Source of the DNA: Nitrospirota bacterium
GTDB taxonomy: Bacteria > Nitrospirota > Thermodesulfovibrionia > Thermodesulfovibrionales > Dissulfurispiraceae
Direction: 5' to 3'
DNA length: 64,000 nt
NCBI GenBank assembly: GCA_963710375.1
Contig: CAVPZX010000005.1
Location: 352,001-416,000, forward strand
Of this stretch, positions 3,441-63,144 are shown one piece after another. Under the pieces are notes generated by a model. The model saw only the letters and a list, made by a program, of their open reading frames with translations. It made no database searches and was not told where the DNA came from. Numbering within the stretch: the stretch's first letter is position 1; each line of letters opens with the position of its first letter. The position numbers and the translations under genes were made by a program.

Positions 3441-3546
3441 AAGTGAAAGGTGAATGGTGAATAGTGAATAGTGAACGGCTCAAGGCAAAACACAAAAAAA
3501 TCTTTAGCTTTTAACCATTCACTATTCACTATTCACCTTTCACCTT
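3441..3546. repeat. inverted short-tandem-repeat hairpin, 7-bp unit GTGAATA
   Basis: AAGTGAAAGGTGAATGGTGAATAGTGAATAGTGAAC ... CATTCACTATTCACTATTCACCTTTCACCTT. Confidence 0.9.
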
Positions 3547-3591
3547 CCATAATCTTGACTAATAAGGGCGGCAAAGGGTTAAATATAAGAT

Positions 3592-8167: not shown

Positions 8168-9419
8168 TTCTTTATATAGCGCTTTCTATGCTGCGGCACT
8201 GGCCTTCCTGCTCCCACTGGAATATTTAAAGCGATCATCTGAATTTCGGAAGCGATGGCTGAGGGAACGCTTCGGCCTTTATAAGGGGAATAGGTTTAAC
8301 GGCCGGCCTATCTGGATCCACGCAGTTTCAGTTGGAGAAGTCATTGCAACCGTCCCGCTTATCGAAAAGATTAAACAGAGACATCCTTCACTTGAAATTC
8401 TCATTTCAACGGTTACCGACACCGGGCAGCAGGTTGCCCTGGAGCGGGCAGGGGCTTATGCTCGAATTATTTATGTGCCTTTTGACCTGCCTTTCGCTAT
8501 TAAGAATGCCCTGCATCATATCCGGCCGTCTGCCTTTATCATAATGGAGACAGAGTTGTGGCCCAATGTTATCAGGATTATGAAAGATAGCGATGTTCCT
8601 GTGATACTGATGAACGGCAGATTGTCCGAACGTTCATATAATGGTTATAAAAAACTCGATTTCTTTATCGGAAAAGTTCTCCTGAACATCAGTCTTCTCT
8701 GCGTGCAGGATGATATCTACGCCGGGCGATTCGGGAATCTTGGCGCGTTACCTGAGCGGATAAAGATCATCGGCAGTTTCAAGTTTGATACACGGCCCTC
8801 TTCAGATATTCCGGAATGGACTGAAGCACTCCGCGGTCCTGTTATAATTGCAGGAAGCACGCACGAGACCGAAGAGGAACTGGTGCTCGATGCCTATATA
8901 CGGTTAAAAGCTTACGAGCCCGGCCTTAATCTTATTATTGCTCCAAGACATCCCGGGCGTTTCAGGACTGTGGAGGAACTGGTAAAGAAAAAGGGCCTGC
9001 AATATGTGAAGCGATCGGAGTTCGCAAATAGTCAGGACTCTCAGGCTTCCGGGCTCGTCGTCATCCTCGACGTTATCGGGGAGTTGTCTGCCCTGTATGG
9101 CGCTGCCGATATTGCGGTCATGGGGGGGAGTTTTATCGAACACGGGGGTCAGAATCCTCTGGAGCCGGCGTTCTGGGGAAAAGCTATTGTATGCGGCCCC
9201 CATATGGAAAACTTTCCTTTTATGGAGGAGTTTTATTCGTGTAGAGGAGCGGTCAGGGCAGAAGGCCCCCGACTTTATAATGTCCTGAAAGAGCTGCTCG
9301 ATTCACCCGAACAAATGCGGAGTATGGGAAGCATTGCAAAGAAACTCTACGAGAAGAACTCAGGCGCTACAGAAAGGGCAATGGAACTAATAGAAAAATA
9401 TATAGGCAATGGGCAATAG
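8160..9419 (+). CDS. waaA: Kdo transferase
   Basis: WIHAVSVGE, ETELWPN, GGQNPLEPA motifs. Confidence 0.96.
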   Translation: MFNSLYSAFYAAALAFLLPLEYLKRSSEFRKRWLRERFGLYKGNRFNGRPIWIHAVSVGEVIATVPLIEKIKQRHPSLEILISTVTDTGQQVALERAGAYARIIYVPFDLPFAIKNALHHIRPSAFIIMETELWPNVIRIMKDSDVPVILMNGRLSERSYNGYKKLDFFIGKVLLNISLLCVQDDIYAGRFGNLGALPERIKIIGSFKFDTRPSSDIPEWTEALRGPVIIAGSTHETEEELVLDAYIRLKAYEPGLNLIIAPRHPGRFRTVEELVKKKGLQYVKRSEFANSQDSQASGLVVILDVIGELSALYGAADIAVMGGSFIEHGGQNPLEPAFWGKAIVCGPHMENFPFMEEFYSCRGAVRAEGPRLYNVLKELLDSPEQMRSMGSIAKKLYEKNSGATERAMELIEKYIGNGQ

Positions 9420-9503
9420 GCAATAGGTAAAGGCTATGAATACAGAAAATAAAAAACAATTTTTTATCTTTTGCCTATCGCCTATTGCCTATCGCCTATC
9501 GCC
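9403..9503. repeat. inverted short-tandem-repeat hairpin, 7-bp unit AGGCAAT
   Basis: TAGGCAATGGGCAATAGGCAATAGG ... GCCTATCGCCTATTGCCTATCGCCTATCGCC; left arm contains the waaA stop. Confidence 0.9.
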
Positions 9504-10616: not shown

Positions 10617-11800
10617 ATTTGCATATCTGAGAAGACAATTTATCTCTGCCGTATGGCGAGAGTATCCGCAGTTCTTTTATGATGGGAGGGAGCACCTCGA
10701 TAACTTTATCGATTTCCGCTTCGTTATTGTAACGGCTGAGCGAGAACCTGACTGATCCGTGCAATGCGGTAAACGCTACACCCATTGCCCGCAGGACATG
10801 ACTGGGCTCAAGAGACTCCTGATGTGCAGGCAGATCCCGATGATGCACAAATGCCATATTCATCGAGCCTGAGAAGAATCGCCTCTCCTTCAACATATTC
10901 GAAGCTGATATTTGTTGTATTCGGCAGGCGGTTGCCCCTGTCACCGTTGACCCTGGCATCGGGACAGTTTGCAAGAAGCGAGTTTTCGAGCTTGTCCCTC
11001 AGAATGCTCAGATAGCCATATTCTGTTCCAAGTGCTTCCATCGAGAGCTTGCAAGCCTCGCCCAGTCCAATAATCGAGGCTACATTTTCTGTCCCGGCCC
11101 TCCTGCTGTGCTCCTGATGACCTCCAATGATATATGGATAAAAACGGGTGCCTTTCCGTATATAAAGCGCCCCGATGCCTTTAGGAGCGTGCAGCTTGTG
11201 TCCTGAAAGTGAGAGCATGTCAACAGGGAGCGTTTTCATGTCCAGGGGTATCTTCCCAACTGCCTGCACGGCATCGGTGTGAAAAAGAATCCTCCGCTCT
11301 CTAAGGACTGTCCCGATCTCCTCTATTGGGAAGATCACGCCTGTCTCATTGTTGGCGTACATGATCGACACAATTGCAGTCTCATCGTCAAGCGCCTTGT
11401 AGAAGGCATCCATAGAGAGCCTGCCCATGTTGTCTACAGGAAGAAAGGTAACACGGTACCCCTTGCGCGCAAGGTGCTTGCAGAAATTGTATACTGCGGG
11501 ATGTTCAACCCTTGTCGTGATTATATGCTTCTTTTGAGGGTGTACTTCAAGAGCGCTCATGATAGCTGTATTGTCGCTTTCAGAGCCGCAGCTTGTGAAA
11601 ATAATTTCACCCGGCTCCGCACTGATAAGTTCAGCGACTTTCGCCCGGGCTGCCCGTAAGTGGGGACCGAGCTGTCCGCCAAACGTATGCATGCTTGACG
11701 CGTTACCGTACAGCTCTTTAAGGTAAGGGAGCATGGCTTCCAACACTTCAGGGGCAACGGATGTGGTTGCATTATTGTCCATGTAAATAGGGCTTGTCAT
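10615..11800 (-). pseudogene. nifS: cysteine desulfurase NifS with one +1 frameshift near 10817 (pseudogene or sequencing error)
   Basis: YMDNNATT, SGHKLHAPKG, SSGSACTSG in one frame; SLEPSHVLRAMG..RFSLSRY continues in another. Confidence 0.85.
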
Positions 11801-12636
11801 TCTGTCTTGGCCTCCACTACTATATCGCTGCTGACGAGTTCCCTTAACTTTTCCTCTATCCCCTTTATGGTAACACCGCCCATGGGGCATCCTACGCACA
11901 TTGCCCGCAGGGCAACTATCACATGTGGGCCCTCGACATCTATAAGCTCTATGTCCCCGTTGTCGGCCTGCAGCCGGGGCCGTATTTCCCGTTCTATAAC
12001 ATCTTGTATCAGCGCAATCTTCTGGAGATTGGTAAGTCTCCCGGGTGTTTTAGGCTTCTCAGGCAGAGGCTTTAATGCCCAGATGCCTTTAAGGATTGCT
12101 TCGATATCCGGTATGCAAGTGCCGCACCCGCCTCCTGCTTTTGTGTAATTGGTCACCTCTTCAACAGTGGTAAGACGGTTCTCGATTATTACTTTCCGGA
12201 TCTTCTCCTCGGTCACCTCAAAACACTTGCAGATGAGAGGCTCTCCCGGTTCCGCGACAGGGGCTTTGCCCCTGTAGTTGGCAATGGCGGCGTCGAGTGC
12301 TTCCTGACCCATTACGGAACAATGCATCTTTTCATCAGGTAAGCCGCCTAAAAAATCAGCTATGTCCTTATTGGAGAGCTTGAGCGCCTCGTCTAGCGTC
12401 ATGCCTTTGATCATTTCGGTAAGCGCTGAGGAGCTGGCTATAGCGGAGGCGCAGCCAAAGGTCTGGAATTTCGCATCGACAATCCTGCCGGTGTCTTTGT
12501 CGATTTTAAGAAAGAGTTTGAGGGCATCGCCGCAGATTATACTGCCGACTTCTCCCACTGCATCAGGGTGTTCTATCTCGCCGACATTCTTCGGATGAAG
12601 GAAAAGATCTCTAACCTTCTTTGTATATTCCCACAT
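11797..12636 (-). CDS. nifU: Fe-S cluster assembly protein NifU (three-domain)
   Basis: CGDAL, FQTFGC, KMHCS, ICKCF..GGGCGTC and C-terminal CVGC. Confidence 0.95.
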   Translation of the reverse strand: MWEYTKKVRDLFLHPKNVGEIEHPDAVGEVGSIICGDALKLFLKIDKDTGRIVDAKFQTFGCASAIASSSALTEMIKGMTLDEALKLSNKDIADFLGGLPDEKMHCSVMGQEALDAAIANYRGKAPVAEPGEPLICKCFEVTEEKIRKVIIENRLTTVEEVTNYTKAGGGCGTCIPDIEAILKGIWALKPLPEKPKTPGRLTNLQKIALIQDVIEREIRPRLQADNGDIELIDVEGPHVIVALRAMCVGCPMGGVTIKGIEEKLRELVSSDIVVEAKTE

Positions 12637-12676
12637 ATATCTTTTTAACACACATCAGAAGTCTTGTCAATTTTTG

Positions 12677-12846
12677 GGTAGTGGGCCAGTTTTTTTTTGC
12701 TCTGTATCACCTGGGTTATCAATAGTGGGCGAGTAACGCCGAGCCCACATATATAGAAGTGGCGACCACAGATAATGCTCAATATAGACCAGTGATTGAA
12801 TTGAACGGCTAATTGATACAGAGCAAAAAAAAACTGGCCCACTACC
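12677..12846. mobile_element. 170-bp MITE-like element, 33-bp perfect TIRs, 9-bp target duplication CAATTTTTG
   Basis: GGTAGTGGGCCAG(T9)GCTCTGTATCA ... TGATACAGAGC(A9)CTGGCCCACTACC, flanked by CAATTTTTG at 12668-12676 and 12847-12855. Confidence 0.85.
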
Positions 12847-12890
12847 CAATTTTTGCCTTCTTAACAATTTTATGCTATAGTTTTCTCTGT

Positions 12891-13610
12891 ATGAGAAAGC
12901 TCAATGTGCTTGTTGTCGATGATGTCGCATCCATGCGCAAATTCCTGAAGTACGGGCTGGATAAGAGCTTTCCCGAAATCTTTGTGGACGAGGCTGCCAA
13001 CGGGAAAGAGGCCCAGGCAAAATTAGAAAAAGAGGAGTATGACCTTGTGCTCTGCGACTGGGAAATGCCGTACGTAAACGGCGAAGAACTCCTGACCTGG
13101 GTGCGGAACCACCCGACACTCTCCAAGATGCCCTTTATAATGGTGACGTCAAGAAGTGATAAGCCGAGCGTATTAAAGGCTATGCATGGGGGAGTGGACT
13201 CGTACATGATAAAGCCCTTTACTGCTGACGGCCTTGCACAGAAGGTCATGATGCTTGTCGATAAGGCCGACAGGAGAGAATCGGAGCGCTTTGAAGCGCA
13301 CGGTGATATAAAATTGCATTTCAGGGACCAGGTATCCAGAGGAAATATTGTTGATCTCAGCATGGGAGGACTCTTCTGTTTGATTAGCAGGAAGAATCCA
13401 CTGCCGTCGATTTTTGAAGAGGTGCGGGTAGATGTAACACTTGAGGAAACGCAGAAGAAGGCGGAAGGGCTTCAGGGGTTCATTATCAGGATACAGGCTG
13501 CAGAAGCGTTTATCGATGCCGAAAACGTTAAGATCGCCGTGAAATTCCTCGAACAATCCAGCGAATCAACTAATCAAATTCAGCAGCTCATTGAATCATT
13601 GAAGACCTGA
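12891..13610 (+). CDS. response regulator receiver fused to PilZ-like domain
   Basis: VVDD, LCDWEMP, KPF receiver motifs; RRESER and DLSMGG PilZ motifs. Confidence 0.85.
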   Translation: MRKLNVLVVDDVASMRKFLKYGLDKSFPEIFVDEAANGKEAQAKLEKEEYDLVLCDWEMPYVNGEELLTWVRNHPTLSKMPFIMVTSRSDKPSVLKAMHGGVDSYMIKPFTADGLAQKVMMLVDKADRRESERFEAHGDIKLHFRDQVSRGNIVDLSMGGLFCLISRKNPLPSIFEEVRVDVTLEETQKKAEGLQGFIIRIQAAEAFIDAENVKIAVKFLEQSSESTNQIQQLIESLKT

Positions 13611-26740: not shown

Positions 26741-26753
26741 AACTCCTCCTTAA

Positions 26754-26933
26754 GGGCTCGCGAATAAATACCTTGTACATTGATGCATCTCGGATTTAGG
26801 CCATCTTTGCCCGATCCTCAGTCACAAAATCCTCAACGTAGCTATGCTACGCCTGCGGTTTTGCTCAGTCGGATCAGCCAAATCTGACCCAAATCCGAGC
26901 GCCTGAATGCACAAGGTATTTATTCGCGAGCCC
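26754..26933. mobile_element. 180-bp palindromic MITE-like element, 23-bp perfect TIRs
   Basis: GGGCTCGCGAATAAATACCTTGT ... ACAAGGTATTTATTCGCGAGCCC; interior also pairs (CTCGGATTT/AAATCCGAG). Confidence 0.8.
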
Positions 26934-27024
26934 GTATCTTTTTAAAAGCTTGCTGTGTGCTCAAAACCTTTTTGCTAATCCCACAGCTGGCTGCGGGATT
27001 GATAAACCGAGACACTTTTAGTCT

Positions 27025-30867: not shown

Positions 30868-30935
30868 AGGAAGGTTAAGGTCAAGGTTAAGGTTGAGAAA
30901 GGTTTTGACTTAACCTTAACCTCAACCTTATCCTG
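30868..30935. repeat. inverted short-tandem-repeat hairpin, unit AGGTTR, downstream of rpoC
   Basis: AAGGTTAAGGTCAAGGTTAAGGTTGAG ... CTTAACCTTAACCTCAACCTT. Confidence 0.9.
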
Positions 30936-40070: not shown

Positions 40071-40165
40071 AGCAGGCAGTAAGCAGTATAAGTAAGCAGT
40101 AGGCAGTAAATACTTCAGCAGGCAGTAAGCAGTCTACTGCTTACTTATACTCTTTACTGCATACT
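40071..40165. repeat. inverted short-tandem-repeat hairpin, 7-bp unit GCAGTAR
   Basis: AGTATAAGTAAGCAGTAG / CTACTGCTTACTTATACT, plus a duplicated TTCAGCAGGCAGTAAGCAGT. Confidence 0.8.
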
Positions 40166-53029: not shown

Positions 53030-53105
53030 GGTAAAGGTTAAGGTTGAGGTTGAGGGAAAGCTTTTTTTGTTAGCTGTTTCTTAACCTTAACCTTAACCTC
53101 TACCT
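53030..53105. repeat. inverted short-tandem-repeat hairpin, unit AGGTTR
   Basis: GGTAAAGGTTAAGGTTGAGGTTGAG ... CTTAACCTTAACCTTAACCTCTACC. Confidence 0.9.
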
Positions 53106-53756: not shown

Positions 53757-53848
53757 AATTTTGAATGTTGAATTTTAAATTTTGAATTGTGGAAGAAAAA
53801 ATTGCTTCACTTCATTAATTCAAAACTCAGCATTCAAAATTCAAAATT
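53757..53848. repeat. inverted short-tandem-repeat hairpin, 7-bp unit TTGAATK
   Basis: AATTTTGAATGTTGAATTTTAAATTTTGAATT ... AATTCAAAACTCAGCATTCAAAATTCAAAATT. Confidence 0.85.
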
Positions 53849-54481: not shown

Positions 54482-54545
54482 TAAGGTTAAGGTTGAGGTT
54501 AAGGTTAAGTCTTTGTCTTTTTGCTTAACCTCAACCTTAACCTTA
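54482..54545. repeat. inverted short-tandem-repeat hairpin, unit AGGTTR; contains lepA stop
   Basis: TAAGGTTAAGGTTGAGGTTAAG ... CTTAACCTCAACCTTAACCTTA. Confidence 0.9.
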
Positions 54546-57514: not shown

Positions 57515-57638
57515 AGGCTAAAGGCAAAAGGCTAAAGGGCAAAAGCTAAAGGATAAATAAGAAAAAAGAACTAAAAATTAGAAGTATGTTTTTCTTTATT
57601 TTTTTCCCCTTAGCCTTTAGCCCTGAGCCTTTTGCCTT
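57515..57638. repeat. inverted short-tandem-repeat hairpin, 7-bp unit AGGCWAA
   Basis: AGGCTAAAGGCAAAAGGCTAAAGGGCAAAAGCTAAAGG ... CCTTAGCCTTTAGCCCTGAGCCTTTTGCCTT. Confidence 0.85.
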
Positions 57639-57657
57639 TTTAATGATATAATCATGG

Positions 57658-60880: not shown

Positions 60881-60977
60881 CAGGCAAAGGTAAAGGTATA
60901 GGTATAGGTAGAGAAAAAGTCTGATAAAAGCTGTCTTAGTTTTTTTGGATCTATACCTATACCTTTACCTTTGCCTG
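60881..60977. repeat. inverted short-tandem-repeat hairpin, 6-bp unit AGGTAW, 27-bp perfect IR
   Basis: CAGGCAAAGGTAAAGGTATAGGTATAG / CTATACCTATACCTTTACCTTTGCCTG. Confidence 0.92.
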
Positions 60978-61879: not shown

Positions 61880-62925
61880 TGATACAGCCGATCCTGTTTC
61901 TCATTGGCAGCCTTTTTATGATTTTGGTCAGTGCTGAGTTTTTTACCAATGGGGTTGAATCCTTCGGCAGGCGTCTCTCCTTATCACAGGCTGTTGTCGG
62001 AAGCGTTTTGGCCGCAATCGGCACTGCCTTGCCGGAGACAATCCTGCCCCTGGTCGCCATCCTCCTGCACGGCGATAATACTGCAAGGAAGATCGGTGTC
62101 GGTGCAATCCTTGGCGCTCCCTTCATGCTTTCGACGCTCGCCTTTTTTGTTGTAGGGGCGACAGTAGTATTCGGTATGCTCAGAAAAAAAAGAAAATTCG
62201 TGCTTTATGTAGATACCAGTTCTATAAGACGCGACCTCATCTTTTTCATCATCATGTACGGCTCAGCTATCTTTTTGCCACTTCTCGTACCGTACAGTCA
62301 TCTCCTGATTGCAGGATTGCTTGTAACCGGCTATGTGCTGTACGTATACTCGACATTTAAGGCCGAAAGTGCCGAGATACTCCATGCCGATCAGCTGCAT
62401 TTTGAAAAGCTGTTGTCCGACTTTAGGAGGCTCGCAGGTTTGCAACTGCGATCGGCCCGGGCAGAGCCATACAAGACCACTTCTTTGATACTTATTTGCT
62501 TTCAGATAACCGCTTCGCTCAGCGTCATGGTAGGCGGCGCACATATATTTGTCGGGAGTCTCGAAAAACTTTCACTCTCGTGGGGCATGAGTCCCCTGCT
62601 GTTTGCCCTGCTGGTCGCGCCGATTGCCACGGAATTGCCCGAGAAATTCAATAGCGTGACATGGACGCTGAAAGGCAGAGACACGCTTGCCATGGGAAAC
62701 ATAACCGGTGCAATGGTTTTTCAGACAACATTTCCTGTCTCGGTAGGGTTACTGTTTACAGAATGGCATATCTCAGGACTGGCGCTCCTCTCAGCAGTCC
62801 TGGCATTGATATCAGCCTTGATCGTCCTGGTAAATATTCAGATCGGCAAGAAAATCTCACCTGCCGCAATGCTTTTTGGAGGCGTAATTTACACGATCTT
62901 TGCGCTATCCGTATTGTTAAAGTGA
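61879..62925 (+). CDS. sodium:calcium antiporter family protein
   Basis: GTALPE and ATELPE alpha repeats. Confidence 0.88.
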   Translation: MIQPILFLIGSLFMILVSAEFFTNGVESFGRRLSLSQAVVGSVLAAIGTALPETILPLVAILLHGDNTARKIGVGAILGAPFMLSTLAFFVVGATVVFGMLRKKRKFVLYVDTSSIRRDLIFFIIMYGSAIFLPLLVPYSHLLIAGLLVTGYVLYVYSTFKAESAEILHADQLHFEKLLSDFRRLAGLQLRSARAEPYKTTSLILICFQITASLSVMVGGAHIFVGSLEKLSLSWGMSPLLFALLVAPIATELPEKFNSVTWTLKGRDTLAMGNITGAMVFQTTFPVSVGLLFTEWHISGLALLSAVLALISALIVLVNIQIGKKISPAAMLFGGVIYTIFALSVLLK

Positions 62926-63110
62926 CTGCAATTCAGACAGTACGGGGTAATTTTTCTTTGCGAGCGATTAGCCCTCTGTACCAGCCCTGCTGCCTATACG
63001 GAAGATAAACTTTGTTCCAGCTATATATGTTGGGCTCGGCGTTACTCGCCCCTGCAGATAACCCAGGCGCTCGACTGCAGAAAAACAACCCCGTACTGTC
63101 TGAATTGCAG
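62926..63110. mobile_element. 185-bp MITE-like element, 23-bp perfect TIRs, 9-bp target duplication TTAAAGTGA
   Basis: CTGCAATTCAGACAGTACGGGGT ... ACCCCGTACTGTCTGAATTGCAG; TTAAAGTGA at 62917-62925 and 63111-63119. Confidence 0.85.
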
Positions 63111-63144
63111 TTAAAGTGAAGAGTCAGAATTTAGTTTTTATTGA

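Follow-up and report, generated by a model that had tools for sequence, protein, structure and literature searches.

Background

Among MITEs, sharing restricted to the TIRs is a standard class in the part of a review cited here (PMC10969869). Conservation of the interior over the TIRs is already published for coral MITEs: in the CMITE of Acropora, the internal region is better conserved than the TIRs, and the cited part of that paper proposes, rather than demonstrates, a role in transposition (PMC2872659). Among prokaryotic systems, the IS1-family transporter IS (tIS) has been defined in PMC9330008, TIRtrons are described in PMC3733652, and MITEPpu9/ssr9 from Pseudomonas putida is a non-coding module riding on the machinery of an insertion sequence (PMC12288879). 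Members of the IS1272/IS1182 family target inverted repeats or hairpins (PMC5678879), and other ISs target REPs (PMC1525189). The cited part of PMC11602168 does not mention Nitrospirota, and no description of the module presented below was found in a literature search that covered mainly openly accessible papers.

Here, we analyse two elements, A and B, of a 64-kb stretch of a Nitrospirota genome (G000), which we call the window, together with their relatives in this and other genomes. The reading that we favour, and to which we give about an even chance, is that one old non-coding module, which likely works as a folded single strand and likely hitchhikes on borrowed, unrelated DDE ends, underlies both MITEs. 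Present across families of one order and folded on a specific strand, this module is carried by two or more kinds of DDE ends and is itself targeted by two IS families. Its anatomy and history are documented; its function, we infer.

The module resembles CMITE in that both concern MITE families with an interior conserved above the TIRs (PMC2872659). However, CMITE is eukaryotic and belongs to the single superfamily piggyBac, whereas the module has ends of at least two unrelated types, mostly lacks a target duplication in relatives, and has an interior that folds on one strand. With its 17-bp ends and duplications of 8(-9) bp, A fits elements that carry an IS1-like transposase and cargo, as tISs do, but its cargo is a non-coding module common to other end types, and the related transposase scores 62.7 bits on NF033558, below the cut-off. 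The likeness to ssr9 lies in a non-coding module using the machinery of an IS; ssr9, in contrast, retains the ends of one IS110 element (PMC12288879). ERIC/IRU and Correia elements are likewise short repeats of the MITE type that are closed by a long stem, and the arms of ERIC, by eye, also contain G.A oppositions, but the module has an open loop with a side hairpin rather than a rod, and is without TA flanks.

Several described classes were ruled out as the identity of the module. ERIC homology fails because comparison with 13 ERIC copies of E. coli K-12, run both ways by sequence and by model, gave no match, and an IS110/IS1111 bridge-RNA MITE is excluded by 29 IS110 loci that gave no profile match and only short look-alike words. 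A retron msr-msd was discarded because RVT_1 is missing from G000, G007 and five genomes of other families, and the module from 14 reverse transcriptase loci. A REP/REPIN or TIRtron (Y1 HUH) origin is excluded as well, since the TIRs at the 16 RAYT-like loci are different ones and the module is absent there. In the window, no Rfam family reached its gathering score, loose E-values yielding only chance matches of miRNA type. Two negative results count against our favoured reading: no protein that would read the module was found next to the RAYT-like (16), IS110 (29) or reverse transcriptase (14) loci, and no long, transposase-bearing version of the module was found among the metagenome and phylum matches of its 3' motif.

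Two observations made along the way concern other elements. A single IS110 of this genome (contig C6, ~147,900-149,400; L663), like L661 and L687, has a conserved, bridge-RNA-like upstream non-coding region with variable guide segments. RAYT-like Y1 genes lie inside 17-35-bp TIRs, an arrangement of the TIRtron type, at C2:218524-221850 (L038) and in congeners.

Elements A and B

Element A (12677-12846) is located between nifU (11797..12651, reverse strand; Pfam NifU_N/Fer2_BFD/NifU) and a divergent receiver-PilZ response regulator gene (12891..13610, forward strand). It is 170 bp long, with perfectly complementary 33-bp arms (36 bp counting flank), and is framed by 9-bp target duplications at 12668..12676 and 12847..12855, both on the forward strand. 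Both A and B lie where a preceding sequence-only reading of the window had placed them. In the congeners G005, G001 and G009, the nifU spacer is empty of A, which marks it as an insertion specific to its lineage; the nifU spacer of G003 is occupied by a tandem-word hairpin. Element B (62926..63110, reverse strand) measures 185 bp, and its 33-bp arms are 94% complementary. Its 9-bp target duplication lies at 62917..62925, including the stop codon of a Na/Ca-exchanger gene, and at 63111..63119 (both forward strand). A and B are therefore, as MITEs are, short and non-coding with inverted arms; the multicopy state and the filled and empty sites expected of MITEs are given by 19 paired A ends in this genome and by the three empty nifU spacers.

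Between its tips, A can be read on the forward strand as follows. The left tip (12677..12693), 17 bp of an IS1-like transporter element end, is followed by an inner left arm (12694..12709), a T-run plus inner stem that can be aligned in all end types. The loop opens with a conserved 5' segment (12710..12724), CCTGGGTT in A and B and CACGGGTC in other families, and continues with the core GC hairpin (12725..12748), which has tandem G.A oppositions and a TAACG loop and contains the invariant 20-mer (12727-12746) and an AAC triplet (12735..12737). An AT-rich spacer of near-constant length, ending in a conserved 3' loop motif (12749..12813), leads to the inner right arm (12814..12829) and the 17-bp IS1-like right tip (12830..12846). 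B has the same module inside unrelated tips of 15-16 bp, with its invariant 20-mer hairpin at 63032..63051 on the reverse strand.

The sequence-only reading had proposed that A and B share a core of about 47 bp between unrelated TIRs. The core match was borne out: 12710-12756 and the reverse complement of 63021-63067 are 89.6% identical over 48 columns (E 5e-10 for a genome of 3.19 Mb), and chance is not the explanation, since the genome has 35 copies of the central 20-mer and none of its backwards control. The proposed limits of the match did not hold, as A and B are homologous over their whole interior. Likewise, the outer tips do differ, but the inner halves of what had been taken for TIRs are part of the common module. 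Judged from the aligned sequences, A and B thus have in common a complete module, ~135-140 bp long and including inner arms, which consists of a 30-38-bp closing stem and a loop of ~100 nt, comprising 5' motif, GC hairpin, AT-rich spacer and 3' motif. In alignments of 47 and 58 chosen copies, collinearity extends from the left arm's T-run to the A-run of the right arm. The 3' loop-side 62 nt, which exclude the hairpin, score -4.5 between A and B (shuffles -15.6 ± 0.6) and -2.5 between C-type and g38 copies (shuffles -15.6); A against C-type gives -11.3 against -14.0 in shuffles, the weakest margin of those reported.

The window holds other palindromes besides these. An imperfect rod of 186 bp at 26751-26936 belongs to neither A nor B. 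Tandem-word hairpins occupy the intergenic spacers at 3444-3549, 9405-9503, 30872-30934, 40076-40160, 53030-53104, 53757-53848, 54482-54545, 57520-57639 and 60881-60977.

Copies in this genome

Allowing up to three substitutions, the 20-nt hairpin is present in 35 copies in the genome, 34 of them exact. Their ends are of type A (16), B (10), C (7) and D (2), C and D standing head to head twice. The host elements are 170-185 bp long, and in every one of the 35 the core lies 50-60 nt inside one end, in line with the earlier description of a core close to one TIR. Another three A copies differ from these by an older hairpin, by an insertion or by a deletion. Since all 35 copies lie within long-armed elements, a free-standing repeat that landed in A and B by chance, named beforehand as a result that would overturn the idea, is ruled out. 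An ORF remnant, which had been one of the suggested identities of the core, is excluded too by a stop codon in A's frame and by length changes that are out of frame.

Conservation is concentrated in the core. Sites deviating from the family consensus amount to 5/340 in A, 0/200 in B and 0/180 in C/D (5/720 in total), against 79/1411, 81/830 and 113/747, respectively, at the remaining loop sites (273/2988 in total).

Composite elements were also observed. Head-to-head C-D composites lie at C8:106768-107146 and C8:216767-217141 of this genome, with several more in G005 and G008; they have an AT-rich spacer with -10-like boxes facing both ways and sometimes sit within A shells. No duplication was found for these composites, whose ends may be IS5-like, to judge by resemblance.

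Spread among relatives

The exact 20-mer, with one mismatch allowed, is present in all 10 genomes of the genus and in none of 31 other relatives. The module itself reaches further. A covariance model, which the sequence-only reading had suggested building, recovers it in nine genomes when applied to another 120 from the order, and it is multicopy in all six genomes of genus g38. A g38 copy used as query finds matches in 11 of 201 class genomes belonging to five families, four of which have the full module and the fifth a half module. What is kept across families is the closing stem, mostly 30-38 bp with free outer sequence, as well as the motif past the left arm, the GC hairpin, the AT-rich spacer and the motif before the right arm. 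The 3' motif occurs in 7 of 401 phylum genomes, every one inside the order.

Matches of the core in the genome collection fit this distribution: 48 of 49 are titled Nitrospirota/Nitrospirae or Dissulfurispiraceae, and the remaining one is a single Anaerolineales sequence without arms. Viral contigs contain no exact core, and no match came from 72,556 plasmids, from phages or from E. coli. The 5' motif has two viral matches, of which the one inspected is a chance match. In several g38 copies, a tandem-word hairpin about as long takes the place of hairpin and spacer; the core hairpin is therefore dispensable at times there, which counts against our favoured reading.

Ends and target duplications

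By comparison of sequences, A's outer 17 bp are the ends of an IS1-like transporter element. A 3053-bp element of G008 (L244 1446-4498) has A-type ends, an 8-bp duplication and a transposase nearest IS1, so that A has both its ends and its duplication length in common with an autonomous element. The tip of the G008 element is identical to that of one A subfamily and differs from the main type at 3 of 17 bases. As for its transposase, PF03400 is just above its cut-off, and NF033558 is below its 100-bit cut-off. An almost identical end motif recurs widely in viral contigs, where 40 of 137 loci match the IS1-like transposase; 18 distinct end pairs in these loci have duplications of 8 bp (14), 9 bp (1) or none (3). 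Such IS1-like transporter elements are widespread (viral loci L247-L383); they have 17-bp ends, duplicate 8 bp of target and carry cargo that ranges in size between ~150 bp and several kb. The present assembly gave no tblastn match to an IS1-like transposase, which counts against our reading: the partner was seen only in G008 and G007, and the mobilisation of A in this genome consequently rests on an element known only from there. An IS4 element of G008 flanked by A ends was ruled out as the parent of A, being a separate IS inserted into A's arm.

The tips of B are unrelated in sequence to those of A, and the duplications are mostly of 9 bp, against 8 bp in A. B's outer 15-16 bp also end unrelated rods without the core. 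These rods measure 184-252 bp (C1:92216-92400, C3:189728-189937, C5:42611-42820, C5:314364-314547 and others in this genome) and have a different, mismatch-rich interior, 9-bp duplications and no significant ERIC match. No autonomous partner or transposase was found for the B ends, and the viral-contig matches of the B tip gave no convincing IS.

Target duplications exceed expectation in A (21/59, 0.3 expected) and B (14/36, 0 expected), and are enriched in the core-less B-tipped rods (6/22). The g38, C, D and E types show no enrichment, in a count whose C rows take in both orientations. Most relatives of the module are thus without a target duplication, and a search for filled and empty sites of the types lacking one, including g38, gave no clean pair, which again speaks against our reading.

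A tree of 46 interiors, a capped sample of the 230 modules with arms excluded and the hairpin included, puts A and B together as one side of a 100/100 branch and places two A-tipped elements from G006 among the C-types. Because a single origin of the A-tipped elements is rejected by this interior-only tree (p-AU 0.0014), IS1-like ends have come to lie on two separate interior lineages. A clade of the C-types plus the two G006 elements is rejected as well (0.011); g38 rows nest within the C-types, and one g38 row is mislabelled. The module interior is older than its ends. With IS1-like tips on A, B tips that also occur on core-less rods, and more than one origin of A-tipped elements, the earlier idea of a conserved passenger on different transposon ends has stood up.

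Fold, strand and function

The core hairpin covaries: 81.5% of 460 cells are paired, with two-sided changes at 5 of 8 pairs, and none of 500 shuffles is paired as highly, slid controls reaching 34-49%. A copies of the congeners show at least four alternative hairpin stems. The arms point to one strand. On the core-forward strand of 225 of the 230 collected modules, the arm mismatches are A.G 429, C.T 56, G.T 232 and A.C 79, counts that, coming from related and non-independent copies, give a direction rather than a significance. By type, A.G/C.T is 280/8 in g38-like, 118/27 in C-type, 30/18 in A and 1/3 in B copies, while G.T/A.C is 25/4 in B; the modest A.G/C.T bias of A and the lack of one in B count against our reading. 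The forward strand folds lower in 104 of 120 sampled modules with RNA energies and in 110 of 120 with DNA energies. In g38 and two other genera, an internal loop of the arm can be read as two tandem G.A pairs. The module thus likely works as a folded single strand. The inner hairpin of g38 is often closed over a GAA triloop, which we take to be a DNA-type motif and hence a hint of DNA.

A folded single strand could also be RNA. The host would then benefit from the module as a structured RNA, either a small RNA of its own or a stem that stabilises read-through transcripts or directs their cleavage, and transposon ends would merely spread it. This we consider rather unlikely. It would explain the bias of G.T over A.C and of A.G over C.T on one strand, and effects on transcripts are reported, in the cited part of PMC3184786, for ERIC and Correia elements. 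In addition, -10-like hexamers lie just 5' of the left arm in 12 of 22 C copies, nine of them at one spacing (control side 1/22), and in 9 of 13 D copies (control side 2/13). However, these C and D boxes stem from one common spacer, and such hexamers are few or missing in A (5/60), B (0/32) and g38 (11/71, against 4). The orientation towards upstream genes is not fixed: the core-distal arm faces a gene start in 26 of 36 cases against ~54% expected, a weak excess based on crude gene calls. Insertion sites vary from congener to congener, the module loop was found to contain no second conserved helix, and the g38 triloop is of a DNA type.

Alternatively, the module may have no function at all, being an old repeat whose arms and hairpin stay complementary through fold-back repair and whose 20-mer is uniform through recent gene conversion. 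Conversion of arms and flanks is indeed visible: several A copies, including the T-run of the window copy, have private substitutions mirrored on both arms, and in 7 of 19 A copies the flanks pair with each other over 5-10 bp. Some congener hairpins have been 'corrected' into perfect palindromes, and the exact 20-mer is limited to one genus. Strand-neutral repair, though, does not predict an excess of A.G over C.T; the unpaired loop motifs and their spacing are maintained across families of the order; and the G.A oppositions of the core are uncorrected in all 35 copies bearing the 20-mer. We regard this explanation as improbable.

In the reading of the module as hitchhiking cargo, the fold would be kept because it helps the copying of the element, the ends being brought together on the extruded strand, and the hairpin may be read by a host or transposon protein. 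An IS end landing in or beside one arm could become a matched pair via arm-to-arm copying, for which the mirrored substitutions and complementary flanks also speak, and a further MITE family would be founded in this way. That the 20-mer is identical in the four end types of this genome would be the outcome of recombination from family to family, with IS1182 copies in the loop among its sites. Sixteen A copies of this genome bear the B/C-type hairpin, and A copies of congeners mostly have other stems. In G008, locus L482 has a B half and an A half on opposite sides of one IS1182 copy, which provides a route for such mixing; C-D composites are nested in A shells there, and nesting is frequent.

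The module as an insertion target

In G008, 20 of the 21 listed copies of an 1811-bp IS1182 element (L452, L453, L479-L497; NF033551, 275.6 bits, cut-off 270) sit at one base of the module's hairpin loop, the position duplicated corresponding to the AAC triplet of A. All 20 have one orientation and duplicate 3 bp, whether the module is of type A, B, C or D or has other arms, and the 21st sits in a similar loop word outside any module. Apparent excision footprints of IS1182 were noted at L074 and L233. By homing to a repeated hairpin, this element resembles the IS1272/IS1182 members and the REP-targeting ISs; unlike in published hairpin targeting, it duplicates 3 bp of the loop, keeps the hairpin instead of replacing it and inserts in one orientation, into a target that is itself the cargo of mobile MITEs. 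An IS4-family element of the same genome has 5 of its 7 copies (L068, L074, L077, L079, L082) in A's core-distal arm, the equivalent of 12814..12829, in both orientations and with 9-bp duplications. In the present genome, an A copy and a B copy each have a 42-bp hairpin inserted at the same point, just past the AAC triplet. Hairpins of ~35-42 bp, without duplication, are found inside other repeats, the module loop included, at 22 sites of this genome, such as C3:169398 and C2:213081.

This raises the idea of a decoy kept by the host to absorb insertion sequences at harmless intergenic sites, for which the IS1182 and IS4 copies held by G008 modules, and the 42-bp hairpin and C-D composites nested in others, could be adduced. 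It is very improbable: the 20-mer is intact in the present genome, where no IS1182 or IS4 of the G008 kind was detected, and the targeting of repeats by ISs is, in the cited parts of PMC1525189 and PMC5678879, accounted for from the side of the IS. That the module primes synthesis on a single strand, as the sso does in rolling-circle plasmids, is hardly credible, because the likeness of the E/F and g38 right arm to the RSB box and of the module loop to CS-6 (PMC6395029, PMC8860593, in the parts cited) is one by eye that adds to a long imperfect palindrome and a one-strand fold, whereas the RSB-like word is missing from A and B, the loop word lies on the side hairpin rather than at the tip of the long stem, and the 72,556 plasmids hold no match.

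Implications

With 20 of its 21 copies inserted at a single position within a 20-bp hairpin, the IS1182 element is a candidate site-selective transposase. More generally, the module bears on how MITEs originate and on why some of them have conserved interiors: one set of ends with an identified autonomous partner, a defined strand, covarying pairs and an IS that marks a single base make the module as hitchhiking cargo directly testable. A bolder version, which we put forward tentatively and think somewhat unlikely, is that the module propagates itself: it would fold as a single strand, copy a neighbouring IS end to its second arm, recruit unrelated transposases one after another and, with its hairpin and arm as dedicated targets, serve as a hub for IS1182 and IS4. 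If this were true, the module would manufacture MITE families and stand at the centre of a community of mobile DNA.
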